DNA of 63,491 nt, filler included, from Licmophora abbreviata (taxonomy: Eukaryota): assembly GCA_900291995.1 (NCBI GenBank). It is 8 parts of 8 records of this genome, joined end to end, with 100 filler letters (N's around TTAATTAATTAA, not from the genome) between each part and the next. Parts side by side here need not be neighbours in the genome. Positions count along the whole stretch, not along the records: positions 41,922 to 51,066 come from OLMU01001428.1; 7 more parts are not named here. One strand, 5' to 3'. Shown here one piece after another: positions 38,787-55,642 of the stretch (positions are counted from its first letter, which is position 1; every line of letters starts with the position of its first letter). Position numbers and translations under genes: made by a program. The notes below the pieces were generated by a model, which did no database searches, was not told the DNA's origin, and saw only the letters and a list, made by a program, of their open reading frames with translations.

Positions 38787-39122
38787 CTTGAATGATCGAC
38801 ATGTGCCTCCTAGAATAAATTATAAACTGCTACTAGTTGTTAGAACTTGTGTTGTCGTCGTTACCGGTACTTGCGATAGGAACTGATAACTTGAACGCAA
38901 GCTTCATCTTGTGACTAAATCTGGGGGTGTTCGATCGGGGCGAACTCCTCTAGGGGTGGAAAAGACGCGCGCGGCGATGCGTGAGGCTCTGCACGGCGGC
39001 GACGACAGCGAGAGACCTGCTCGTTTGCACTTTTGCACAACCTGATGTTCCTCAATCGCAGTCTGACTCCGCACAATCTATCAAAAGACTACACGATCAA
39101 CAAGTTGACCAGTGAAGGCACC

Positions 39123-40037
39123 ATGATAACTGAAAGTAAAAGAATAAGAAGGAGTTTCCGGCTCGTCGCGGCGACACTCTCCATCACCCTCCTCCTCTCC
39201 ATCACAACGACCGCGGACGCAGCCCACTCGCGTCGGCGTCCCGTGGTGCGCCGTGTAACGGAACCACGCTACGATCGAAGCATAACGACCTTTTCGTCCG
39301 ATGGAAGATTGCAGCAAGTCGAGTATGGAATGGAAGCAGCGCGCCGGGGGGACACGGTGGCCGCTCTGGCGACGGAGCAGCTTGTCGCTGTTGCTACCGT
39401 GGCGTCGTCGCAGTATCAAAACAAGGTGCATCGGATCGATCATCACATCTTACTCGTCACCACTGGGTTGGTGGGAGATGGACGTGCGTTGGCGTCGGCC
39501 TTGCGTAGCTCATGTCAACAGTTCCGACTGTCCTACGGAGAGCCACCGACGGTGTCGGAAGTGGCCAAGATGGCAGCCAAGATGCAGCACGACTTGACGC
39601 GGACGGGAGGGGCGAGGCCGTTGGGGTGTAGTGGCATGGTGGTCGGAGCTGATCCTGTATCGGGGCGCCCACGGCTTTACCAGACAGAGCCAGGAGGGAT
39701 TGTGGAAGAATGTGAGTACTGTGCGGCTGGAAAGGGGCGCGACCTCGCGATGGAGTCTCTTGGCAAAGACTATGATGACCATCTGAGACATAATCATGAT
39801 GAAGCTGGAGAGAAGGAAAGTGATGACGCTACATGTGCTACTCGTGCAGTCGCATGCGCTGCGCTTGGAAAGGAGAGCATTCAGGACGACGACGAGGCCC
39901 GACAAGTAGTGGACGGATGGATAATTCGGGCAGCCGCGAATCGCCGGGGACGATTGTCCGTGACTTGCTATCGGAACCTTGATCGAGAGGCGCTTTCATC
40001 GCTGACTATTCTTACAGATAGAATACAGGCTAGCTAG
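39123..40037 (+). CDS. Divergent 20S proteasome alpha subunit with a signal peptide (periplastid-compartment type)
   Basis: YDRSITTFSSDGRLQQVEYG, GLVGDGR, T.TGGARPLGCS, PRLYQTEPGG. It is preceded by LVAATLSITLLLSITTTADA-A and a basic transit-like peptide. Confidence 0.88.
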   Translation: MITESKRIRRSFRLVAATLSITLLLSITTTADAAHSRRRPVVRRVTEPRYDRSITTFSSDGRLQQVEYGMEAARRGDTVAALATEQLVAVATVASSQYQNKVHRIDHHILLVTTGLVGDGRALASALRSSCQQFRLSYGEPPTVSEVAKMAAKMQHDLTRTGGARPLGCSGMVVGADPVSGRPRLYQTEPGGIVEECEYCAAGKGRDLAMESLGKDYDDHLRHNHDEAGEKESDDATCATRAVACAALGKESIQDDDEARQVVDGWIIRAAANRRGRLSVTCYRNLDREALSSLTILTDRIQAS

Positions 40038-40060
40038 GCTAGGCCATTTCACGGCGACAC

Positions 40061-42373
40061 TTAACATCGTTCAAAGACCTTGTACAAACTTGGAATGTTG
40101 GTCATCCTGGAGATAGTACCATCGTCAAGAAGTTCCTTGTTCGGAACAAGAAGATACGATATAGCTGGAAACAGAGTGTGCTTGACATCCGACGTTGTTT
40201 GTGAGTAGTAGATACCCAGCTCTCGACAGACACCCTTGAAACATGGTTTCTCCTCCGTCCAGTCGACTTCCGTCGCTAGTCGAAGGAGAAAGAACGGTAG
40301 GCCGGAAGGAGAAGGCTCATGGTCGTCCAACAAAACAGGGAGCGCCGTCAAGGCAATGTATTCATTCCCTTTCTTCAATTGAACTCCAAAATACTCTTCG
40401 AGCATATCTGCATGTTCCAACAAACACGTAGCTGCTTGATGCGCCAGGTCTTGATTAGTTTCGCTCACCTGGGTAACTCGGGGGTCTTCCTCCTCCAGAA
40501 GCTCTTCTAGTTCAAGCGCGTATGCCATGACGCGCGTAATGTCGATTGATTCCTGTAACGTGGCTAACGGCATTCCACCAAAGCGAGATAGTGCCAATTG
40601 ATAAAACAGCTCTTGTGCCATGGTCCTTACATTCCACATGTTCAGTTCGACACCGCACTGTACTAAGCAACGCTGCGATGATACCTGTCCGACAAAGATG
40701 GAATCTCGTATCTGCTTGGTCAGGGCGGGGCATTGGTGCTTTTGCACTTTGCGTCGCAGGGACAAAATGCTCTTGTAGGTGCAGTGCGTTGGAGTGACCT
40801 TGCGCGGACGGGCGATGCTGCGAATCACACGTACGATCGGACACGAGCACTGCGTTGTGGCAAAGGCGCCGGGAAGTGAAAGGTCCACACCGTCCTTGAG
40901 AGGGCAATCTGCGCGATGTTCCTGCTGCGATAGATGTTGTGGCTTCTTGCTGGAGGATACTAGGTACGGTTCCAATGCGCCGGCGGGAGCTGCTTTGGTG
41001 GTTCGAATCATCGCAGACGGGGGCGTGATCTTTGACTTTTTTGGTTTCGGTGCTGGCGTGGCTGAAGGAGCAGTCGTTGCGACATTACTAGCAGACGGAG
41101 TCTCGTTGATAGTCGCTTCGCGTTTCTTGGCGTATGGGTTGGTGGGTGGTTGGACGGAAGCGTTCGCAAATGTCTGTTCGGTCGAGGCGAGTACATGTCG
41201 GAGTTCGGTTGTCACTGCCGCAATGAGGTCATCCTGGTGCAATAGCGCCACTTGCTGCTTGGTTGGGTGGACATTGACATCCACCTGTGTCCCTGGTACA
41301 ATCAAAGAGAGGTATAGAACTGGTTTGTTCTTGGAGAATTGAGAACACACGTCTTCGACGGAGCGTTTCAATGGCGAGCATCCTACCAAGCGATGGTTGA
41401 CAAAGAGAACCAGCACGGTTTTCGAGGCTGCATGCGAAGGGTGTGATATAAGTCCAGTCGCGGAATACGTGAAAGCAGTTGGATCGTTGCCTTCGTCCGG
41501 TTTCTTTTCGCATTGAACATCGAGTAGATTGCGTTCCAGCTGGGATCCAAACACGTGCCCCATGACCCGTCGTGTAGCTGCAAACAAAGATGCCTCGCCC
41601 TCTCCACTGGGCGTATTTGCGGCATATGACGACACCACAGTAGTAGTGTTTAGATCCACCACCGTGGCACTTTTCTTCCCAGTCACTTTTCGACACACCA
41701 TACCCACTCCCCTCTGTGCCGCATGAATGGCATAGTGCTGTACAACGGTAAGTATTCTCGCGTACTCGTCGGACGCATTCATCTTGCGTCGGTGGGGAAG
41801 ATTGTAAAACAAGTCTTGCACNNNNNNNNNNNNNNNNNNNNNNNNNNNNNNNNNNNNNNNNNNNNTTAATTAATTAANNNNNNNNNNNNNNNNNNNNNNN
41901 NNNNNNNNNNNNNNNNNNNNNGTCGTACCCCGCGTCCGCGCTTGTGGACGAGGCGTTCCCACCGCAGCGCCGTTGGCATACTGCTGCGCATATCCCACAG
42001 CCGCGTCATTGGTGCGAGCGACAATCTGCAACCTCGCCACGAGACTGACACTCGCCAGGGCTTCTCCTCGGAAACCGAAGGACTGCAGAGTTTCGAAGCC
42101 TTCTAGTGTGCGTAATTTGGAAGTTGCAAAGCGTGTCGCGGCCATGTTCAGGTCCGCTTTGCCAATGCCGCAGCCATTGTCGGTGATTTGCAATTTCTGC
42201 AGACCCTCGACGTGAACGATAATGTTGGAGCTTTTGGCATCCAATGAATTCTCCAAAAGCTCTTTGATGACACTGCATGGCCTCTGCACCACTTCTCCGG
42301 CCGCAATCTTGTCCACAACCTCTTGAGGAAGAGGCACGATGCCCCGAGGAGAGGCGGTCGTCGTCTCCGCCAT
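40061..42373 (-). CDS. MLH1: DNA mismatch repair protein MLH1 (interrupted by a scaffold spacer)
   Basis: KIAAGEVVQRP..KELLENSLDA, DNGCGI, RFATSKL, FGFRGEALAS, QDLFYN, VDVNVHPTK, and the invariant C-terminus LYKVFERC. Confidence 0.96.
41822..41921. other. Artificial scaffold spacer inside MLH1
   Basis: N44-TTAATTAATTAA-N44. Confidence 0.97.
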
Positions 42374-42753
42374 GATGTGACGGTGCGCTCTGACGCTTTT
42401 TGTGTGAGAGTGTATCTCGTCCTGTTTTTTTAAGGAGCGACGCACGGACGGATATCCTAAGTTTGTCGCAGACTACCAGAGAGAGATAGAGCACGTACAT
42501 CTCAGTAGTGGATCTACGTGCAGGAGAACCCCACGATCGCCATTCTGCGAAACGCACCGTTCGTTTTCAACGCACACGCAACAAGCACCACACACACGCA
42601 CACACACACTCGCATTCACACTCGAGCATCCTCGCCATCATCGTCGACCCATCGGACTTGGACGATTGCTTCGACACAATCGATTGCTTAGAACCAAACA
42701 AGAGAAGCATTCAAACCATCCGTCATTGCTGTTGTCCTCCAACAAACAAGAAG

Positions 42754-43997
42754 ATGTCGATGAACGAAGAAGCCAAAGCGTTAATGAAGATTGCGACCCA
42801 GGACGAAGCTGGGACCGACGAGAAGGAGCAAGGCGACGAGGGCGCGGAAGCCGCAAGCAAGCCGACAAAGTCCAATGCCGCCAACATCTTTCTCAAGGAC
42901 GGACCTCCCATCATGGAACCTCTCCTCGATGATGTCCTCAATGGCCGTGGCGCCTTTGTCAATGCGCACAAGGGAAATCAAAAGTTCCGCTCCCTCTGCT
43001 TTGCCCGCAAGCCCGATTTCGATGCAGGCAACCATCCTGTCAAGCGTCGCGTTGCGGTCGAGATTGTCGACGAAATCAAAGGGAACGGCGGACGATTCTT
43101 GAAACGCAAGGAAGAGAAGGGACCGTGGTTCGAGCTCACGAGGGAAAAGGGCATCTTGAAGGCACAGCAAGTCATGCGGGACTTTCAGCGGCCGGATCGG
43201 ATCGAACGAAGGCAGAAGGCTGCGGCGAGGGAAGGAGGACACAAGCGACAGCGTGCAATGGAGAGCACCCCCGGTGCCTCGGAAGCGGTAAGTGAGGACT
43301 GCGACTAACGAAAGTGTTGTAGTTTCTCTGTTGTGGACGAAGTCGTTCGACAGGATGGACCGCTGTGCTCACTTTCTGGTCGCGCGTTTGTCTCAAATCT
43401 TCCCATCAACGCATTCCACACCATCATCAGGCCTCTCGCTTGACGCAGCCCGTTGATCCCATTTTTGAGAACCCCTTTGGAGTTCACGAGCACGACGTTC
43501 TCTCCGGCCGTGGAGCCTTTGTCAATGGACATGTTGGGAACAAGCGCTTTCGCGACCTTGCCGTCGAACGAAAGGCCCAGTTTGATGCCGGAAACTACTC
43601 GGAAAAGCGCCAGCTTGCAGCGGAGGCTGTTCACATTATTAAGAGCCTCACTCCTCCTGGTCGTTTCCTCAAGCAAGTCACTCGGGCCATGATGGAGAGC
43701 GACCATCCACCGACAATGACGCTCGTCGAGGGTCTTGTTGGCGATTGGATGGAACTCCCTGACGACAAGGCCATTCACAAGGCGTGTCAAGTGATGCGTG
43801 ACTTGGAACGTCCTGATCGCGTCATGGGACGACGCAAGAAGAGCAAGAAGGTCAAGGAGACGGATGGCATCGCCATGTTGGCGGAAACGACGACAAATGA
43901 AGCGTCGGCTGTCGAAGAGGCCATGGCAGCGACCGAAGAGGCTCTCGACAAGGTGTTGGAGTCCACGGGGGAGAAACCAAAGTCTGAGGAAGTTTAA
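42754..43997 (+). CDS. Protein with two tandem DUF6824-type domains. Exons 42754-43287, 43431 (or 43449)-43997
   Basis: Two copies of DVL.GRG..VN.H.GN..FR.L..K..GRFLK..W.EL..K..Q.MRD. Donor GTAAGT at 43288 with two in-frame acceptors. Confidence 0.8.
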
Positions 43998-44532
43998 GTG
44001 TGGCAGGAGAGGGGTCAAGCTCAAGCGGCCTTTGGTTCTATGTGTGTGAAACTATAGCTGGAGTACGACCAATTATCGGTAGACCAAGTTTCTTATGAAA
44101 CTCTCTAGTACTTACATTGAGCGTCGTTAGATCGGGCGTAGTAGGTGCGGTCGGTCTATCCGGGAGTACCTATGGCTGTGTACAGAGGGTCACTCTCTCC
44201 TCTCTACAGAAGCATAACTCCACGCCCTCTGTACCGGTATCTATAGTCCACCTCAGGATGCGCATTCAACATCAGCCGCCTGCCCGTCGGACAGGCAGTA
44301 TCATAACTTCGCTCCGCATCGTAGACTAATATGTCAGAATGACCGAGCGTTAAATCCAGTCTGTCTCTTGGTCATTCCGATCTGGCGCCACACAAAAAAG
44401 CCAAGGGCGTGCGTGTTTTGATGCTCCGCGCCATGATGGAGGATGGTCGGTGGCCCTAGACTGCTGCTGCTGCTGCTGCTGTGAATGTTGGGTGCTCCTG
44501 TAGAAGCTCAACGCTACGCCAGATCTGCCACC

Positions 44533-47500
44533 ATGTCTTCACGTGATCGATTGTCGAGTCCTTCTCCACCGACGCAGCAAGACAGTTTGGCCTTCCTGAG
44601 GGACCCTGACTTCCAATCGACTTCGAGCGCCGCGTCCATCGCGGCATCTACAACGTCCTCGTATCGACATCGTCAGGCCTCGTTCTCCATTCCCACGCCG
44701 ACGGTCCCCAAGCCTGTCCTCATGAACGATACGAACCATGAGCCAAAGACCAGAGGCGCGTTGGGAATTATGATTGTTGGGCTGGGAGGAGCCAACGGAA
44801 CGACCCTACTGGCTGGAGTTTTGGCCAATCGACAAAAGATGGATTGGAGGGGAGCTCGAGGAGAACCCATGTCGTCGAACTACTTTGGGTGTATTACTCA
44901 GCTGGAAGAAAGGGGAGGCGGCGTGGGGTACAAGAACAAAATCAATGGCCTGGCGGACGCCTCCATGGCCGCCGTCGGAGGATGGGACATTCGACCGGCC
45001 AAGCTGGGAGATGCTTTGTTGGATGCTCAGATTCTAGACTACGACCTGGTCCGACAGCTTCAAGGTGACATGAACAAAGTCAAAGTTTTTCGGGGGTTAT
45101 ACGACAAGCGATTCATCGGTGCGTCGCAACATGCAGGTGCCACTCACATTCTGTCGGCGCAGGAAGCGCCGACGGCCAGCGAAGCGCTCAAGTGTTTACG
45201 GGCTGACATTCGGTATTTCAAATGGGGAAACGGGGTTGTTGGTCACACGACAGTCATCTGGAGCGCGAGCGTAGAGCCGAATTGTGAACTCTTGTTGAAA
45301 TACAAGACAGCTATCGATCTTTTGAACGCTATTGAAATGACCGACGACGATCGAGGAGGACCGTTGCCACCGTCGTTGCTGTATGCGACAGCGGCATTAC
45401 TAGAGAGGTGCTCATTCGTGAACGGTGGCAGTCAGAATACTTTGTCTTGTCCGGGTCTGGTGGATCTGGCGGAGCAACAGCTCGGTGTCTACTGCCTCGG
45501 GACGGACTTCAAAGCAGGACAGACCAAGTTTAAGACTGCAGCGGTCGAGTACATTAGGACCATGGGTCTCACTCCGAAAGTGATTGCTTCCTCGAATCAT
45601 TTAGGAAACAATGATATGAAAAACTTGGCGTCTGCCCCTGCAACGAGCAAAGCCAAGCTACGAGTGAAGCACGACATTTTTGCACCGTGGGAAGAGGACA
45701 TTGATCACAAAGTGAGCATCATGTATACTCCAATAATCAATGACGAAAAGCGAGACTTTGTGGAATACACCAGTCTTGGTTTTCTTGGTCAGACGCATAC
45801 TATGGTGACCTACACACGTGCATCGGATTCCGTCTTGTGTGTCCCGCTGATGATCGATGCTGCAGTCTGGTGCGACCTTTTCGCGAATCGAAGTTGGTCG
45901 TACGACAAGGTGGCAAAGGCCCTCGCCTATCTCTTCAAGGTACCCGAAGGATCGGCGATGGGGGTAGACCCGGGTTTCTTTCGTCAAATGGAGGAGCTCA
46001 AGACCCAAGCGTATGCTGCAAGCGAGGCGAAGACTACTAAACGACAAGAGAGTGGTGCCAAGAAGCGAGTGCGGATTCGACCAGAGGAGAAAAGGACGGA
46101 GTGGGCTATCCCGAGCGACGCTAGGATCGTATGTGCAGGACTGGCATGCGTAGATATGCAACTTAACCAGGCCTCTGGTGGTGACGGTGGGGAGAGTATC
46201 GAGACCTTTGAAGGCGAGAAGAGCATTGGCGGAGGAAGGTGCGTTCCAATACCCGCGTTTGTAGAGAGTTCTCGAATATGAACAAACGACTCATTCGTGA
46301 TTGTTGCACATTGTTAATCTTAGTGTGTCCATGGCGTGCAAGACAGTCGCTCGGCTCTGCCATGGCGCCCTTCTCAACGATGGATTCATGCAGGTGACCC
46401 CGCCTGTGGTCCATTCAATTGTGCCACTCTGTAAGATTGGTCACGACGACGCCGGGAACAAGCTCGTTTCACTTCTTGAAGGCTGTGGCGCTGAGTTTCG
46501 CAACGTTGACACATCGTATATCAAGAAAGCTCGCGAGGAAGGCGACGACGCTAGGACAGCCCTATCAGTTCTTCCGATTTATCGCGATGGTCGGAGGGGC
46601 TGCTTCTTCGATGCGGCCTCAAACGCAACATTTTCCCCTGACGAGATGATTCGGATGATCCACGGTCTCACGTCAAGTTCAACAGCCCCGGACCTTGACA
46701 CAAGCCAGATGTCAATAGACGACATGCAAAGCTACCAAGAGCGAATGGACTCGAGAACTCCAGCATACGGGGCGTTCCTCTTCGGTTATCCTCACCTTCT
46801 CCCTCGGATGCAAGGCGAGAGTCTGGCAAGAATATTCGTCGAGGCGCGAAGCGTCATGATAGACGGGGGTATTGTGGCTCTCGACCTGAACGGAGTACCG
46901 GACGACGTCTTCACCCTGCAGTCAGGACTGCGGAACGTTTCTGATCTCAAGAACGATCGTGTCCTTGGACCCGCTCTTGAACATGTGGATATCTTGCATA
47001 TGAACGAAGACGAGCTGATGCTTCTAACTGGATGCGAGATAAGAGGAACCGAGAAATCGCGACTTGATGACGAATATGCTATTGAAAGCGCTGTCGACTT
47101 GTTCCTACAATGCGGAGTAGCAGTTGTGGCTGTCACTCGGGGAAGAAAAGGAAGTTTTGTGAGCTGCAACAGCGAGGTCCGATTCAACCGGAGCCCCATG
47201 CTGTAAGTGTAACAGGCTTACAGCCGCCCCCGCGCGTAAACTTCGTATACACTCTGACTGACTTGTCGTCCAATTTCCTCTCGTAGGCCGGCAGCATGGT
47301 TCGATTGCAACACCAAGCTTGGTTCAGCGGAACTTCCTCAAGGTACTTCCATCAACACGAATGGAGCTGGCGATTCGTTCACGGCAGGATTGCTGGTGGC
47401 GACGATGCTACGACATACAGGCATGACCGTCCCACTCCCGAAGGAAGAGTCGGAAGATGAAGGTGCAGCGCTTGATCTGAGCGGCAGTCATGGCGAACTC

Positions 47501-48025
47501 TTTGAGCAATCCATTGATCTCGGGCAACTTCAAGTTTCCTCCCCACGGAGGTCGTCGCCAACAAAGAAGCAATCCACTCCGTACCAACTTTACATGCGCG
47601 AGAACTATGTCATGCTGAAGAAACAGCTCCAGGACGACAAGAAGGCAATCTTCACGAAATGCCACGAGATGTGGGAGCACGAAACGGACAGCGTCAAAGC
47701 GTTGTATGAACGTAAAGCTAGAGAAGAGGCCAAAGAAGACGCAAACGAGCTTTCGGCGCGGCTAGAAGATGCCATGGAAGTTTTGGATTCGACTCCCCGC
47801 ACAATCGAAGCCGGTTCATCGTTTGGAGCGGACAAGGACGAAGAGAAGGTCGTTCGGAACCTCTACATGATGAATCGGGCGTTGAACCTGGAGTCGGCCG
47901 TGCAGTTCGCCAGCCTGGTGGCCGCTCATCATGTCGACGTGAGCACGCGGGACTTGCTGCATCTAGATATTCTCTGTCTCCTCGAACGAGCGCTCATCGT
48001 CCCCCTCGGGCTCGAGGAAATCTGA
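44533..48025 (+). CDS. Fusion protein: myo-inositol-1-phosphate synthase + PfkB-family kinase with inserted HMG-box, about 1107 aa. Exons 44533-46238, 46324-47202, 47287-48025
   Basis: MIPS motifs [60 protein letters not shown]. PfkB motifs [50 protein letters not shown]-like [22 protein letters not shown]. Confidence 0.88.
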
Positions 48026-48179
48026 CCCGTTCTTACAGTCTACGACAAGAAGGACGAGCATTAGGCTCCATGACGACTTCCAAGTAGCTCGTACTGTTAA
48101 TTTTTATAGCGACCTATCGACAAATATGACGGCGAAATCTTCACATTTTGCACATTCAGGGGATGACGGCGTAAATCTT

Positions 48180-49296
48180 TTAAAAATCAGCATTGAAGTT
48201 CAGTGATCTTGTCCCAGACCCACTTTCCTCCAGTGATGCCATCACCCCACTCTTTTGATACTCCGCAACTCGTTTCTCGAAGAAATTCGTCTTCCCCTCC
48301 AAACTTATCATGTCCATCCCTGTGTTAAAGATATGCATGTCATGGGCGGTGTTAGATCCTGGAATACTTCAAAACGTGGATCAACCATCGGGACAGTCGT
48401 CACACTACTTACAGTCGAATGGATTCTTACTCCCGTACAATGGTCGATACCCGAGGTCCTTGAGCAGGCGATCCGCCACAAACTCGATATACTGCGACAT
48501 GAGCGACGCATTCATACCAATGAGACTGACGGGCAGAGCATCACAGATGAATCCTTTCTCTACTGCCACTGCTTCGCCAATGACCCTGTGAATTTGATCT
48601 TCGCTCAACTTGTTCTGTAGCTTGGAGTACAAGTGACATGCGAACGAGCAGTGAAGACCTTCGTCGCGACTGATGAGTTCGTTCGAGAAGGTAAGACCCG
48701 GCATGAGACCTCTCTTTTTCAACCAGAAGATGGCACAGAATGCCCCGGAAAAGAAAATCCCTTCCACTGCGGCAAATGCTACCAAACGCTCCGCAAACGA
48801 CGCATCGGAGCTAATGTAGCGCTGCGCCCACTTGGCCTTCTTCTTGACGCTGGGCACGCTGGTATGAGCGGAAAACAAAACATCCCGATCTTTGGCATCC
48901 GATATGTATGTGTCAATCAGCAAGCAGTAGGTTTCTTGATGAATACTCTCCATGGCCATTTGGAATCCATAAAAACAGCGGGCTTCGGGTACAGTCACTT
49001 CACGACAGAAGCGTTCGGCCAAGTTTTCTACGACGATCCCATCGGCACCCGCAAAGAAGGCCAGTACCATGGAAACAAAATGTCTCTCATTTTCGGTTAA
49101 TTTGTTTTGCCAATCCGACAAGTCCATGGATAAGTCAATTTCATCGGCAGTCCAGAAGCTAGCCATGTGTTGCTTGTACATGCTCCACAAGTCGGGGTGT
49201 TCAATTGGAAAGAGAGAGAAGCGAGATCCAGCTTCGTCGGTTCGGCAAATGGGTTCGACGAAGGTATCATTCTGATCATCGTTCTGTTGCAACGAC

Positions 49297-49336
<40 letters not shown>

Positions 49337-49739
49337 CTGACTGGGCGGCAGGTGACGGTAGTCGATGAGGGCTACTTTTTAACGTGTCGCTCCCACTGTC
49401 CGTTCTGGCGTTCGATACGCTACTACTGCCTCCCCGAGCTAGTATCGAGTCAGAAGGCCTAGACGGTCGTTCCAAGGGCAGCGATGGCTCGTCTGTTGTA
49501 GACGATCCACCACCTCGCCACCGTCTTGCCACGTGTCGGAGGACACTTGGGTCATCGATGATCGCGTTTCTCTGGTTTCGAGCGGAGGATGAGAATCCAA
49601 GCATCGTCGGCGGTATAACAGGTATAGAATTGACAGAAATAACAAGAAGGAGGAGGAGAAGAAGAAATGATCGTCCTGCAGTAGTGGTATTCACCATCTT
49701 CCGTTTGTTCGTTTGTAATCTGAGGAGGAACTCGCTCAT
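48180..49739 (-). CDS. RNR2: Class Ia ribonucleotide reductase small subunit (R2) with an N-terminal signal peptide. Exons 49739 (or 49697)-48413, 48319-48180
   Basis: [69 protein letters not shown]. Confidence 0.95.
49297..49336. repeat. (CAA)n microsatellite encoding polyQ in the R2 leader
   Basis: About 13 TGT units on the + strand. Confidence 0.95.
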
Positions 49740-50315
49740 AATGGTGCGTTGCAGGGACACACTTTCACCTCCAATCCAAAACAGGAACTCGATACCAAGC
49801 TTTGCGTTGCCTCTCTCACTATTTTCATATATAGACGCCCCTCTACGGTTCAGGGTGGTCGTCGGGAAGAACTGATAGTGTCCCGTACAACTGAGTGTGT
49901 GTGAGGATGTTGATGTGTGGTGCATGTCACAACGAGCACAGAGACGGCGGTGAGCGACGGGATGGATCACATTCGATCTTTTCGTACAGCGTCGCAGTAC
50001 AAAGTCTACGTGGAAGGCATCCATAGCCATTGAAGTATGTTTGCGCGCCCTCTGACTCATTCGACTCTTAGAAGGTCAGGTTTGTTGGAGAGTACGTGTG
50101 GCTGCTGTTGCGGGAGAATGATCCCATTCGTTCGTGGTTGTCTGATGCCAGCTGTCGTGTGCGAACAATTTTTTGGCGCGCCTGTTTCGACGTTCGTCCG
50201 TGTTGAAGCCCGCAGGATTTCGTTCCGACTCACTCACTCGCACTCATCAGCATTGCTCTCGCCATCTGTGAACTTTCCAGGTCTCTTTTAGGCTACAAGA
50301 AAACAACAAAGCACC

Positions 50316-51066
50316 ATGTCTACGTCCTCCTCCTCTACTTCTGATCCACCTTCTTCTTCTTCTGCAGAGCTTCTCGGTAGTACCGACATTGGAAAGCTCC
50401 TCAGTTCGGATGGACCGATCGTCACGTGTGTCTTGCTCCGGGCGACTCCCAAGATGGACGCGGGCGGAGACCAGAAGCTCCCGGCAGCATCCAACAACAC
50501 GTCAGCAGACGCGTCGTCCAAGAAAAAGACAGTCTTGGTCGATCTAATGGAAGAAATTCAAGTCGACACGACTCCTAAAAAGTCCATGGTCAACAAGGTT
50601 CTGGGGGGACCGTTTACGTTCCTAGGACAGTTTGAAGACGAAGGCATCATGTTGATGGTGCGGCGTTATGAGAATGACGCGAGTGATGGACAGGAACCAC
50701 TGCCCCCAGTCAATCCGCATCAACTTCAGCCTCCCTTTGATGATGTGGAAGTCTATGGAGATATTCTCATTATGAAGGTGGCACCGACCGATGAAGTTTT
50801 GGATCGTCCAGAGGATGATGACGACGACGAGGAAAAACAACAAGAGAAGAAGCTTGTCGTTCCAGCGGGAGACGATTTCTTCTTGGATTATACCAAGGAA
50901 GAGTACGTAGCCTTTGCCTTGCGTACTGATGTTGTCGCACCGGTACTCCCAGAAGAGAGTGACTGCGAGGAGGAGGAGGAAGAAGAAGTGGACAGTGATG
51001 CCGAAGACGAGGACTATGACATAGAGGACGAACTAGAAGAGGATGACGAGGAAGATGACAAGGAAC
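50316..51066 (+). CDS. Hypothetical acidic protein, 3'-truncated by the gap
   Basis: The ORF is open to the gap. Core LGGPFTFLGQF..VNPHQLQPPF..VYGDILIM..FFLDYTKEEY is followed by a D/E tail. Confidence 0.7.
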
Positions 51067-51166
51067 NNNNNNNNNNNNNNNNNNNNNNNNNNNNNNNNNN
51101 NNNNNNNNNNTTAATTAATTAANNNNNNNNNNNNNNNNNNNNNNNNNNNNNNNNNNNNNNNNNNNN
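51067..51166. other. Artificial scaffold spacer
   Basis: N44-TTAATTAATTAA-N44. Confidence 0.97.
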
Positions 51167-51212
51167 AATGAGTACACCCGTTCATTCACCCATTACATCA
51201 TCATCTAGTCTA

Positions 51213-53909
51213 CTAGTACGCTGAGATCTCTTCTTCAGGGATGTCTGGCTCGTCCATCTTTTCCATGGCGGCCTTGATGCTCAGATTCGTATCTTTCGGC
51301 TCCAAGTCAAGCGCAATCAAGAAGCACCGCATCGCTTGCTCCGTCCGCCCGAGGCGCTTCAACACCTTGCCCATCCCATAGTGTACAGAAGCCTCCCGGG
51401 GACACAAGTCACGAACCTTCTCCAGTTCCGCCAATGCCTCGCGTGGACGATCTAGCGCCGTGTAAATGTTGGCACGCTGGTAGCGAGCCTGTGGGTTGCG
51501 CGGACTGACCTTGAGCGCGCGCGAAAAGGTCTCAAGAGCATCGTACGCTTTTCCATTGTTATTCTGGGCGAGTCCCAAGTGGCATAGCAGGACAGCGCTT
51601 TGGGGGTTGATATCAATGGCGCGCTGAAAGTGGTACTCGGCCAGTTCGAACTGCTCTTGTCGAAAGTAAATGGTACCAATACCATACCAGGCATTGTAGT
51701 GACGATCGTCGGCGCGAATGGCGTCACGGTAGCATGCCTTGGCCTTTTCAAAATCTTCGATGGCCATGTACTCGTGTCCGGATAGTGTGTGTGAGTAGGT
51801 GAAGGACGGGTCAAGCTGGATGGATCGCCGAAAGAATGTCAGAGCTGCCTCGTGGTCCTTTTGAAGGGAAAAGCAGTTTCCAACGACACACCAACTCTCT
51901 GCACTGAGACGATCAAAATCAGTGGCGCGCTGTGCGAGATGAGACAGCTGTACTTCCTTCTTAAGTTGCCACAAAGTAGTGGACAGAACCTCGAGCCCCT
52001 TGATGCGATGAGGTTCTGTTTGCTGCATGAGCTCTAGGTACCGCTGCGCGTTGCGGTAGTCGGCCATTTCAGAATGTGCCCGACCCACTTGATGAAGTAC
52101 CCAGCCCGTGCGAAACTGCTCTTGAGGGAGTCGATGAAAGATCTGAATTGCCTCACGGCAACGGTACTGTTTGTTCAGGAAAGGCACCACAACTGGCATA
52201 AGCGTACTAGTACGAAGCGCTTTTCAACTTGACCGGCTGATGAAAAATCCACTTACCTGACAAAGTCGCTTGTGTGCCCCTCCCATGATACAAAGTAGTT
52301 CCAGAATTGACTTGACGCTATCTTCGTCGATCTCGCAGCCGCTACTTCGCTCGGCAGCACCAGAATCGGATGACTCTTTCTCAAAGAGCGCTCCGGGACG
52401 AGAAGCCCCAGTCATCGAAAGTCCACCTCGCGGCGCTGTTCCTTCGTCCATCGCTTTCACTGATGCGCCTTCGCCAATTATATCCTTCGAGAGACTTAGG
52501 CGCGAAAACGATCCTCCTTTTCGACTTGCTGCACTCATGTGGATGCTCATGCTATCAAGTCCCCCGAGGAACAGTGATCGAGGCTTGTTGCTCGACGAAG
52601 GCGACGCTGTCTCTGGAGACGGCGGGTAGTACAACCGCGACGCCACCCTATTGGCACGCCTCACCACGACTGGATTGAATCCGTCGCCAGAGGCACCCAA
52701 GTATGACTTTTCCGTCGTCATGGGAATGGGTGTCAAATTGGGCGTTTCAAACAGGGATGTCCCCGAGGGACGAGGCGGTTTGCTGTTAGTATGGCGTGAG
52801 GAAGTAGGAAACAGAGATGTCTTGGGTAGAAAGGACGACATGGGCGTCGTTGTCAAGTCAATGGCCGCACGAGCTGGGGATGGAGCCGCAGCTGCCGCCG
52901 TTTCAGTTATGGGTGTTTGAGACAAGAAGCTTGGGGTCAAGACGCCGCGTTCCTCGCGGGGTGTCGGTTGTGCAAGGTTAGTTTTCTGGTCCTCTAATGT
53001 CTCAGGGGGTAAGACGAGCGCATCGGGACACACGCCAAAGATCTCCACCGGGTCCAAGACATCGTCCGGAGCGCCAAGCTCGCAAAGGGCTTCATAACTC
53101 GACCACATCATGGGGTCCAACTGAGAATGAGAAAAAACGACATGAGCAGGTACAGCGTGAGAAGAAAATTCCCCAGTACACAAGCATTGAACGTCTTCAC
53201 GTAGAACATATTGTTAGTACCTTCAGGGACATACGATAATACTTTATGGCCCGTTCCTTTCGATTGGAGTTGCGACAAATATCGGCCAATAAGTGCAGAC
53301 CCACTGCTCCATTTGGAAGCGGACAGGGCTGTGCGCCGTTGAGGAAGATGAGATTAGGAAAGATGAAATAATGATGCAGCCGAACGGGTGTTCACCTCCC
53401 TTCCCTACTGCGGTACTCACCGTCTTGGTGAGGATCCACTCTTCCATGTTGTCATTGGTTGCCGAGCGGGTACCTCCGTCCTTGTCATCACTTCTTGCGC
53501 GGTACTGATTCCGACAGGCGGCGAGCAATGCATCCTCGGCACGTCCGTACTGCTTCAAATCATAATAACATTTCGCCAACAAGTACAGCGTGTTGGCGTC
53601 CTTGCCTATACTCCCGCGATGCCCCCTGCTGGTGTCGTCATTCTGTTCGAGTACGGCTCGTGCACTCTGCGGCGATCCGGAACGATAATGACACATTGCC
53701 AGCAGGTACAGGGATTCGCTGCTTTTGTGATGAGCCACATAGCGTTCCGCAAGAAAGATGGCGTTGTCGAGACAGAGCATGGACAAGTATTGTTGAATCA
53801 AGGCAGTGTACGTGTCGTCGAGGCGTCCGGCGGTAGCAGCAGCTTTGGTGTCGTTTGATTCGGGATGAGCGGACAAATCGACGCCATCAGCGACACTGGG
53901 TGCTCCCAT
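51213..53909 (-). CDS. CDC27: APC/C subunit CDC27/APC3. Exons 53909-53421, 53328-53221, 53120-52257, 52166-51213
   Basis: NAIFLAER, LDP.MWSSYEALC.LG, TGWVL.QVGRA, ESWCVVGNCFSLQKDH, TLSGHEY, RHYNAWYG.G, TPR array. All three introns are phase 0. Confidence 0.95.
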
Positions 53910-54199
53910 AGTGAGATACGAATGATAGATAAGGAGAGTGGAAGAAGCACGAAGCGATGATGAAATAGCTACTTGATGAGCGTCGCGGTGATGATCTCCA
54001 TGGTCGACGCGGCTCATCCTCGCGTCTCTCTCAACACGGCGTCCGTCTGTATGTCCCCTAAGATTTTGATCGAATGCCAAAGACTCGACGGACGACGGAA
54101 CTTTCAACTTTGTGTTCAGTCTACCGCCCCGACCATGACTTGATCTCTCATTGTGCTGTCCTTACAACTCTTCTTCTTATATCGAAACGCTTGCCTACC

Positions 54200-55642
54200 A
54201 TGGTTGATACGCCCCTACGTCCGCTCAATCGCTCGGTAGTCCTCGTACTATGCATTGCTCTGTCGCTTCTTATCGGTACGACCCGAGCCTTGTCGCCCAA
54301 CACCGAGTACATTCCCGGCACTCCCCGAAGCAGCGTCGTGGAACTGACGCGTGCCACCTTTCCGCATGCGCTCGAGGATCCTGCGAACTCCCTCTGGCTC
54401 TTGAAATTCTACGCCCCCTGGTGTGGACACTGCAAGCGCATGGCGCCCATGCTGAACGAGATTGCGCCGGAGCTGTCGTCTCAGCTGGCGATTGCTAAAA
54501 TTGACTGTACCGTGCAGAAGGCCTTGTGCAGCGAGTATGGGGTCAAGGGGTATCCGACCTTGAAGTTTGCGCGGGATGGGAAGGTCTATGACTACCCGGG
54601 TGGGCGCAAGAAGGAAGACATTGTGCGTTTTGCGAAACAAATGAGTGCTCCTGCGGTTGTTGATTGTGGGGGGTCCTACGACAGTGCCTTGGAATTGGCA
54701 AATGACGAGGACGACGAGGAAGAATTGGGAATTATCTTTGTGGTTTACCATAAAGATGTCAAGACTATTGACGATCTTCAGTCGACATCGCTCACGCAAG
54801 TATTTTCTCAAGTCGCACGCGTGGACCAGCCCTTTGCCAAGTTTTGTCTCTTGTCGTCGACCGACCCCCCGCCCGATCTGGCCCCGTTTTGGCTCAACCA
54901 AGAGGAAAAGGACAAGGGATTTATTGCGAAGCTTCAAATCAACGTGCCTTTGAAACTTCTCCCCTTGAAAGAAGACGAAGAAGTCGATACGCCCATGCTT
55001 TTGGATTTTGTCAAGGAGTACAATGTGCCTCTGGTGTCACAGTTGGGACCTCACAATTTCCATAAGATTGGTCGAAATGGACGCAGACTCGTCATCGGTG
55101 TCATTGATGGTGGTGCCGACGAGAAAGATGGGCAGATAGAGACTATGAAGAAGAAACTGGCTGAGTATGCATTGTCAGGCCCCACGGTCATCACTGCCCA
55201 GTATTACTTTGGCTGGATCGATGGGAAGCAGTGGCAAAAGTTCTTGCAGAACTTTGACGTCGAGCCCAACGCCCTGCCACAAATATTGGCGTTGGATATG
55301 GAAGAGAAGAAATACTGGCAGAATGCAACCTACACGTCGGTAAAAGACTTTTTGATGGCGATCGAAGATGGCAACGTGGAGGTCAAGTACTCGGGAAGAC
55401 CGCCGACAGGCGCGAGGGGCGTGTTGGCGCGGGCGGAGCGGACCTTTTTCAAGTACTTGCCGTGGAGTGTCGTCGGGGTGGTTGCGGTCATCTGCTTAAT
55501 GTGTATTCTTATCATTCCGACTCCAGACGAGTTGCGCGAGGGGGTGTTCGGTGAAACCAAGAAGGCGGCGGCAGCAGCTGCGGCCGCCGAGGCTAGCGGA
55601 GAAGAAGTACAAGAAGGAGATGAGTCCAAAAAGGACAAGTAA
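54200..55642 (+). CDS. Membrane-anchored protein disulfide isomerase (TMX3/PDIL5-2-like)
   Basis: Signal peptide, FYAPWCGHCK, GYPTL, b-type domains, C-terminal TM segment and a KKDK dilysine ER-retrieval signal. Confidence 0.9.
   Translation: MVDTPLRPLNRSVVLVLCIALSLLIGTTRALSPNTEYIPGTPRSSVVELTRATFPHALEDPANSLWLLKFYAPWCGHCKRMAPMLNEIAPELSSQLAIAKIDCTVQKALCSEYGVKGYPTLKFARDGKVYDYPGGRKKEDIVRFAKQMSAPAVVDCGGSYDSALELANDEDDEEELGIIFVVYHKDVKTIDDLQSTSLTQVFSQVARVDQPFAKFCLLSSTDPPPDLAPFWLNQEEKDKGFIAKLQINVPLKLLPLKEDEEVDTPMLLDFVKEYNVPLVSQLGPHNFHKIGRNGRRLVIGVIDGGADEKDGQIETMKKKLAEYALSGPTVITAQYYFGWIDGKQWQKFLQNFDVEPNALPQILALDMEEKKYWQNATYTSVKDFLMAIEDGNVEVKYSGRPPTGARGVLARAERTFFKYLPWSVVGVVAVICLMCILIIPTPDELREGVFGETKKAAAAAAAAEASGEEVQEGDESKKDK

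Follow-up and report, generated by a model that had tools for sequence, protein, structure and literature searches.

A stretch of 63,491 nt from Licmophora abbreviata (assembly GCA_900291995.1), composed of eight joined parts of eight records and called the window here, carries in its part from OLMU01001428.1 (positions 41,922 to 51,066) a gene which joins myo-inositol-phosphate synthase (MIPS) to a PfkB-family kinase. No de novo route to inositol other than MIPS is known, and MIPS is normally a stand-alone enzyme. Judged from its structure and family membership, the locus is very probably one nuclear three-exon gene of a diatom-like stramenopile, coding for a protein of 1107 amino acids (aa). 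An initial annotation, made from the DNA alone, had proposed that a single gene fuses a complete MIPS to the kinase. This was borne out. No stop lies between the domains, both have Pfam matches, and 36 of 37 long relatives match nearly end to end. The features of the gene are listed below.

44533..46238, + strand: exon 1 (residues 1-568 and two bases of codon 569), ATG at 44533, within the open reading frame (ORF) 44485-46281; contains the low-complexity N-terminal region, MIPS domain, basic linker, and PfkB first strand with GG motif
44761..46002, + strand: MIPS domain, residues 77-490, placed by Pfam, phmmer to solved MIPS and motif table
44779-44799, + strand: MIPS motif GLGGANG
45499-45534, + strand: MIPS motif of 12 residues
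45589-45618, + strand: MIPS motif of 10 residues
45739-45768, + strand: MIPS motif of 10 residues
45925-45951, + strand: MIPS motif AYLFKVPEG
46060..46092, + strand: basic linker of 11 residues between both enzymes; consensus KRRVRIRxxEKxTEWAIP in diatom relatives
46123..47389, + strand: PfkB kinase core, split by both introns, placed by Pfam and motif conservation
from 46123, + strand: kinase start motif of 11 residues
46222-46345, + strand: kinase GG motif, across intron 1
46239..46323, + strand: intron 1, 85 nt, GT at 46239 and AG at 46322-46323, phase 2
46324..47202, + strand: exon 2, body of the PfkB kinase (Pfam PF00294) with DGRRG, GYPHLLP and NEDE (NxxE)
46571-46624, + strand: kinase DGRRG motif
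46775-46804, + strand: kinase GYPHLLP motif
46997-47032, + strand: kinase NEDE (NxxE) motif
47203..47286, + strand: intron 2, 84 nt, GTAAGT at 47203 and AG at 47285-47286, phase 2
47287..48025, + strand: exon 3, in ORF 47258-48025, with Pfam PfkB and HMG_box matches and an AlphaFold model; contains the last kinase strands, GAGD anion-hole helix, a disordered loop, HMG-box-like insert, C-terminal kinase helices and the GLEEI end; TGA stop at 48023-48025
47354-47389, + strand: kinase GAGD motif of 12 residues
47564..47737, + strand: HMG-box-fold insert, residues 955-1012, within the kinase
47882..48022, + strand: C-terminal kinase helices (24 residues of motif) and tail ending GLEEI, conserved in relatives; helices in AlphaFold models

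Three + strand ORFs, read from stop to stop, cover the gene: 44485-46281 (598 aa), 46301-47206 (301 aa) and 47258-48025 (255 aa). The first one is uninterrupted from the MIPS domain into the kinase start motif (residue 531, nt 46123). An in-frame ATG upstream at 44485 is also possible as the start of exon 1. Exons 44533-46238, 46324-47202 and 47287-48025 were joined by script into a coding sequence of 3324 nt with 1107 codons plus stop and zero internal stops, so that the two GT-AG introns (46239-46323 and 47203-47286) and the length of 1107 aa were recovered exactly as first annotated. Intron 1 lies directly 3' of GGG in the GG motif and contains the stop 46279-46281. Intron 2 keeps the frame yet has stops (TAA at 47204 and TGA at 47255). 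The 13-residue peptide over the intron 1 junction is the commonest form among relatives (23 aligned rows), and the peptide over the intron 2 junction, SPML/PAAW, fits their consensus SPMLPxSW. Proteins of 995-2840 aa found by search, 37 in number, were taken as long relatives. In BLASTP, the 1107-aa product matched all 37 in a single stretch with 49-70% identity, which in 36 of them begins no later than residue 113 and reaches at least residue 1083. The exception, P0037, has a degenerate MIPS half and matched only from residue 496. Such agreement between the predicted gene model and the relatives is far beyond chance. The fusion gene was found in one copy only by tblastn of the 63-kb window. 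A search for sequencing runs of this organism listed no RNA data. From the one run listed, of uncertain kind and with 6% of the sampled words, two contigs of about 160 nt were obtained, both of which fall within exon 1, and none crossed the introns.

The fusion could also be an artefact of the gene model, in which a MIPS gene ends at the stop 46279-46281 and a separate kinase gene lies downstream. The long ORF does stop within intron 1 and many database ORF calls end at the intron 1 site. Against this, exon 1 encodes the first strand and GG motif of the kinase in the reading frame of MIPS, and a separate kinase gene would be left without either of them. The junction peptides also agree with the relatives, and four transcriptome ORFs marked 'type:complete' (P0011, P0020, P0023 and P0029) cover both halves, therefore the fusion is one mRNA in other diatoms. 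An artefact of this kind is extremely improbable.

The MIPS half was identified by sequence and fold. Exon 1 matched PF07994 (NAD_binding_5) with 203.4 bits against a cut-off of 25 and PF01658 (Inos-1-P_synth) with 74.9 against 27. NCBIfam search of the MIPS exon gave zero matches. In phmmer search against PDB, rice, fungal, C. elegans and yeast MIPS were best (E 2e-59 to 3e-52), and the Bacteroides and Archaeoglobus structures ranked well behind the eukaryotic ones. Eukaryotic MIPS/INO1 (rice 9m53, yeast 1jkf and C. elegans 1vko) gave the best matches by sequence and fold. The NAD-binding glycine motif GxGGxxG is kept along with GQTK, SxNHLGNND, KRD and YLFK, the last four of which we take to be conserved catalytic-site motifs. 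The motif sequences (37 residues, and AYLFKVPEG) are identical or near-identical between the window protein and most relatives, and the first three align with rice MIPS. For a member of this family, the window protein resembles solved MIPS only weakly (204 bits over about 380 residues). It also differs from them in having a 76-residue disordered N-terminus and a chain which runs on into a kinase. The motif presumably reading LWTANTERY in MIPS reads IWSASVEPN here. Taken together, the MIPS half is predicted to be an intact eukaryote-type myo-inositol-3-phosphate synthase domain. In the passages of a kelp study which deal with INO1, the enzyme is treated as stand-alone with two copies (PMC6742357).

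Residues 1-76, ahead of the MIPS domain, form a disordered Ser/Thr-rich N-terminus (44533-44760), in which a hydrophobic signal peptide was not seen on inspection by eye. A short motif S-S-[YF]-R-H was observed in this region, with the form SSYRH in the window protein and SSFRHH, SSYRHH or STFRH in relatives. It may represent a regulatory site.

The second half showed the features of a PfkB kinase. PF00294 (PfkB) matched exon 2 alone with 29.2 bits against a cut-off of 25.8, exon 3 with 22.9 bits and the whole relative P0001 with 45.8 bits, and all the long relatives match. Splicing restores the anion-hole motif at 47354-47389, as first annotated, and both halves keep their catalytic motifs. 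SIGGGS, NEDE and NGAGD, together with a 16-residue stretch, are conserved in the window protein and across 84 aligned kinase rows, and the catalytic D as well as both N and E of NxxE are among the columns without variation. A 15-residue motif and FGYPHLLP are conserved specifically in this clade. An arginine of the DG[RK]RG motif (R657) is invariant in 83/83 aligned rows and aligns with DGER of E. coli YdjH, which is a possible hint at an anionic acceptor.

An AlphaFold model was made of P0001, which is 70% identical to the window protein, from an 83-row alignment. It had a mean predicted local distance difference test score (pLDDT) of 81 and a predicted template modelling score (pTM) of 0.66. 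The fold of its first half matched MIPS structures. The second half showed the ribokinase fold and matched YdjH and ribokinases in Foldseek, with E 1e-15 and template modelling (TM) score by target of 0.69-0.73. Searched singly against PDB, exon 2 showed only weak similarity to solved structures (E 0.0018). A profile of the whole fusion found only MIPS chains in PDB, so a kinase-only profile was needed. The profile of 25 stand-alone kinases found YdjH first (4.8e-28) and then Staphylococcus ribokinase (1.7e-27). An ESM Atlas search with the Porphyridium kinase gave generic PfkB clusters only. With YdjH and the ribokinases (3h49/3in1, 3ry7, 1rkd and 5c3y) the window kinase shares the ribokinase fold, the GG, NxxE and GAGD motifs and top profile matches of E 5e-28 and 2e-27. 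It differs from them in an identity of 16-19% in the fold alignment, the clade motifs, about 60 extra loop residues, an HMG-box insert and the fusion to MIPS. No paper on the substrate preference of YdjH was found in the literature search.

The insert is situated in the loop between the GAGD helix and the last kinase helices. Pfam HMG_box (PF00505) matched the window protein with 19.2 bits, below the cut-off of 25.4, and P0001 with 25.9 bits. The same family matched 33/37 long relatives at E<=0.01 (best 1.6e-7). AlphaFold models of P0001 and of the window exon 3 showed three helices with pLDDT above 90 and disordered loops on either side. In exon 3, the helices comprise residues 98-113, 118-130 and 134-166, most of which score a pLDDT above 90, and adopt the L-shaped three-helix fold of an HMG box. 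Nearly all Foldseek rows for the exon 3 model were HMG boxes, such as BAF57 (TM by target 0.83, root mean square deviation 1.9 A). The Foldseek E-values were all 0.74 or more because the HMG-like domain is a small part of the query. The window insert alone found only TFAM HMG boxes in PDB, and weakly (E 0.065-0.24). Along with the fold, the P-Y...Y/F, W and Y positions of HMG boxes (BAF57, UBF box 5 and TFAM box B) are, in our reading, kept. Unlike them, the insert is neutral to acidic, sits in a loop of a metabolic kinase and has marginal scores (19-26 bits). By a simple motif test, it is present in 57/64 fusions. It is absent from the fusions of Phaeothamnion and of the metagenome proteins P0099, P0103 and P0174, and from the stand-alone kinases.

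The insert might be thought to make the protein DNA- or chromatin-bound, giving it a second job in gene regulation or a role in nuclear sensing of inositol metabolites. The HMG_box matches among relatives, the confidently modelled three-helix fold and the Foldseek rows favour this, and the basic linker, with KKRVRIR, may serve as a nuclear signal. Arabidopsis MIPS1 also has a nuclear role. HMG boxes which bind DNA are, however, strongly basic. The net charge of the insert, taken over 58-61 aligned residues in 50 sequences, had a mean of -1.5 (range -4 to +2; window +2). The basic surface expected of an HMG box was thus not found by net charge, and this speaks against classical DNA binding. The Pfam score of the window protein under the cut-off and the high Foldseek E-values also stand against it. 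A DNA- or chromatin-bound factor of this kind seems very unlikely. As the module is not basic, regulation or protein contacts are its more likely role.

The domain architecture was found to be widespread. PF07994 and PF00294 occur together in 37/37 long relatives, which include Seminavis robusta, Mayamaea pseudoterrestris, Epithemia clementina, Nitzschia inconspicua, a Bacillariaceae species, a Pseudo-nitzschia-like model (Psemu1) and an 'Amphip...' transcriptome entry. Other named members are Fistulifera, Amphora and a Chaetoceros-like centric diatom. Beyond diatoms, fusions which possess no HMG insert were found in Phaeothamnion confervicola (P0068, 857 aa) and in the three metagenome proteins named above, and Discosporangium P0092 and P0080 keep the end of a MIPS domain ahead of the kinase. 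On sequence evidence, the gene belongs to a fusion family which is common to pennate and centric diatoms and which occurs without the HMG insert in other ochrophytes. A search from the kinase side, with exon 2 as query and directed to longer proteins, found 156 proteins. Among the 120 listed of these, both MIPS families were present with PfkB in 75, PF07994 alone with PfkB in 15 and PF01658 alone with PfkB in 7. PfkB only was present in 22 (518-689 aa) and MIPS families only in 1.

Shorter relatives (312-994 aa) numbered 361, and the best 120 were sorted by script. PF00294 was present in 66 of them according to the precomputed Pfam column. The kinase start motif and GAGD were both present in 50, and in 53 the chain breaks off after the start motif. 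In 17 of the latter it ends 36 residues after the start of the motif, which places the break at the intron 1 site. The position of intron 1, right after GGG of the GG motif, seems to be conserved, since the ORF calls of these 17 relatives end exactly there. Many 'stand-alone MIPS' entries of about 540-590 aa are thus truncated fusions. The start motif, in the pattern as written, was missing in the other 17 of the best 120. Of these, four share the terminal EEI of full fusions, five break off within the kinase start, and the remaining eight, chiefly from short contigs, stop in the MIPS domain or shortly beyond it. No clear stand-alone MIPS of the clade was seen among the best 120 of the 361 shorter relatives. 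Prokaryote-style gene calling which cuts at intron 1 would explain most of the 'MIPS-only' entries.

Exon 2 was also used in an exhaustive HMMER search of 1.84 billion proteins, which gave only 136 cluster representatives at E<=0.001. Thirty of these were looked up. They included stand-alone kinases of the red algae Porphyridium, Timspurckia, Erythrolobus and Galdieria, the raphidophyte Fibrocapsa, the amoebozoans Stenamoeba and Pelomyxa, and a Planctomycetota bacterium. Plant proteins were not found among the 30 of 136 looked up, and no specific function was assigned to the members named there. A quick IQ-TREE phylogeny of 61 kinase-domain rows placed bacterial kinases of the FHFGYPPLM type as outgroup on a branch of 1.07 changes per column, after which Planctomycetota-like and amoebozoan sequences branch. 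The red-algal stand-alone kinases were sister to an ochrophyte clade containing all fusions (support 99 in the SH-like approximate likelihood ratio test, SH-aLRT). The diatom fusions shared one long stem (1.1, support 100). A small number of stand-alone rows, from Fibrocapsa and four others, fell inside the fusion clade, indicating fission, gene-model truncation or repeated fusion.

In prokaryote genomes, 80 loci were retained from a scan, 75 of which encode a kinase with FHFGYPPLM. This is a large bacterial PfkB subfamily, with example loci L003, L004, L026, L027, L050, L070 and L078. In 15 bacterial loci examined, the recurrent neighbours were DeoC/LacD or class II aldolases, lyxose-isomerase-like cupins, DUF4432, GFO/IDH/MocA oxidoreductases, AraC or DeoR regulators and transporters. 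Such neighbourhoods look like a catabolic cassette for some sugar.

Motifs of the MIPS half were counted in 64 fusions with at least 380 residues ahead of the kinase. The four motifs scored showed an all-or-none split, being all kept in 58/64 and all lost in 6/64. P0289 is also degenerate in its MIPS half according to the motif table. All seven relatives with a dead MIPS half (P0289 included) keep the kinase start and NG[AS]GD motifs, which P0029, P0031 and P0036 show in the aligned-row motif tables as well. The six of the census also keep the HMG-like motif. One of them, P0029, is a complete transcriptome ORF. The window kinase is closest to that of P0036 (78% identity), and the MIPS motifs of the window protein are intact, unlike those of P0036.

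The neighbouring genes were also annotated. A DUF6824 ORF (43323-43997, + strand, 63.6 bits) lies directly upstream of the fusion gene. A ribonucleotide reductase small chain (PF00268, 364 bits) is encoded at 48405-50075 on the - strand. It is extended at its N-terminus by some 280 residues, among which are about 12 consecutive glutamines and a hydrophobic segment. The regions 38985-41869 and 50292-55642 contain a proteasome alpha-type subunit, the C-terminal half of MLH1 (- strand), and DUF5880, TPR and thioredoxin-domain proteins. These are ordinary nuclear genes and were rejected as a clue to the function of the fusion.

What the kinase phosphorylates has to be judged by comparison. We favour, with modest confidence, an inositol or inositol-phosphate kinase coupled to synthesis of myo-inositol 3-phosphate (Ins3P) in one protein. 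That the acceptor is itself inositol or an inositol phosphate is more tentative, and somewhat less likely than not. The MIPS half would form Ins3P from glucose-6-phosphate, and the kinase half would carry out ATP-dependent phosphorylation of a compound from the same pathway. The likeliest acceptors would be free inositol, in salvage to inositol phosphate (InsP), or Ins3P, in the first step to higher inositol phosphates. Synthesis and phosphorylation of Ins3P would then be coupled in one particle, with the HMG-like module serving regulation or protein contacts. We infer that both halves are catalytically active and linked in metabolism. The link to inositol comes from the MIPS–PfkB fusion itself and from precedent in the PfkB family. 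Maize myo-inositol kinase (MIK; PMC4765147) and the archaeal MI3K and TM0415 (PMC5931981) establish that inositol monophosphate can be formed by a kinase of the PfkB family. The window kinase shares with maize MIK/lpa3, Thermococcus MI3K (4XF7) and Thermotoga TM0415 (1VK4) the superfamily and the metabolic area, and the first-strand Asp and catalytic Asp of MI3K/TM0415 are present in it. The narrower proposal, that the kinase is dedicated to Ins3P or inositol and passes the MIPS product straight towards higher inositol phosphates, is unlikely.

Several observations weigh against an inositol substrate. In MI3K the inositol ligands are D12, G26, Q136, R140 and D219, as given in part of PMC5931981, and no counterpart of Q136/R140 was recognised by eye in the window kinase, which has GYPHLLP in that region. 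MI3K (4XF7) and TM0415 (1VK4) were both absent from the best 60 of 110 PDB profile matches. The NCBIfam labels of the kinase (ribokinase, hexose kinase and IolC N-terminal domain) lie far below their cut-offs and were not used for substrate. By these comparisons, the kinase appears no closer to known PfkB inositol kinases than to other sugar kinases. The connection to plant MIK drawn in the initial annotation found no support in these comparisons with solved structures and clade members. The kinase belongs to a separate small clade whose closest solved relatives are YdjH and ribokinases; none of its 30 named members is from a plant. The MIPS motifs are lost in P0029, P0031, P0036, P0037, P0046 and P0350, and red algae and Fibrocapsa possess the kinase alone, so the kinase needs no MIPS in the same chain. 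In bacteria, no MIPS gene stands beside the kinase in the 15 loci examined, and by analogy the neighbourhoods, which belong to sugar catabolism, point to ketose or acid-sugar kinases.

Two other substrates have to be considered. The kinase may feed the synthase by phosphorylating a hexose, the fusion thereby coupling supply of substrate with formation of Ins3P. Glucose would give glucose-6-phosphate directly, and fructose or mannose would give a hexose phosphate which a single isomerase reaction separates from it. It is common for fused enzymes to act in adjacent reactions of a pathway, sugar kinases are the closest relatives of solved structure, and the bacterial relatives adjoin D-lyxose/mannose-isomerase-like genes and aldolases as expected for ketohexose kinases. 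However, no PfkB glucose-6-kinase model of NCBIfam matches, the eukaryotic clade lies 1.07 changes per column from the bacterial kinases with motifs of its own (LPxYxDGRRG and LQG), and retention of the kinase beside a dead MIPS is odd for a dedicated supplier of substrate. We regard such feeding as improbable. The kinase may instead have a substrate with no relation to inositol, namely a sugar, keto-sugar or acid sugar, as is probable for its bacterial and YdjH-like relatives, the fusion serving only co-expression, assembly or regulation. YdjH as the top match by both sequence profile and fold, the catabolic bacterial neighbourhoods, the kinase alone in red algae, amoebozoans and Fibrocapsa, and the dead MIPS of six relatives all fit this. 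Opposed to it is the same domain order across diatoms and other ochrophytes with a conserved linker, as such stable fusions usually mark a functional link. An unrelated sugar is a rather improbable acceptor, and other roles of the kinase take up what probability remains.

The initial annotation knew of no characterised example of the fusion, and our literature search, outside which most subscription journals lay, agreed with it in finding no paper which describes or tests a MIPS–PfkB fusion. It had also counted an architecture already described and widespread as evidence against it. Half of this applies. The architecture is widespread and visible in public databases, filed mostly as synthase only, and the fusion is undescribed in the literature searched. 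Some JGI records are named 'myo-inositol-1-phosphate synthase/sugar/nucleoside kinase'. The HMG-box-fold insert and the relatives with a dead MIPS half are additions to the earlier annotation. In practice, database labels give the fusions as plain MIPS, and gene calling of the prokaryote style truncates them at intron 1.

Phosphate sensing and lipid signalling both involve inositol phosphates, and diatoms are major marine primary producers. A stable fusion across diatoms links this kinase clade to inositol-phosphate metabolism. An HMG-box fold within a metabolic kinase and the retention of a catalytically dead MIPS half are both unusual. Were the kinase dedicated to Ins3P or inositol, InsP signalling molecules would be reached in diatoms and other ochrophytes by a channelled, lipid-independent route, in which the acidic HMG-box module and the dead-MIPS relatives would act as regulatory parts, and an enzyme could be named for the poorly defined step from InsP to inositol bisphosphate (InsP2).

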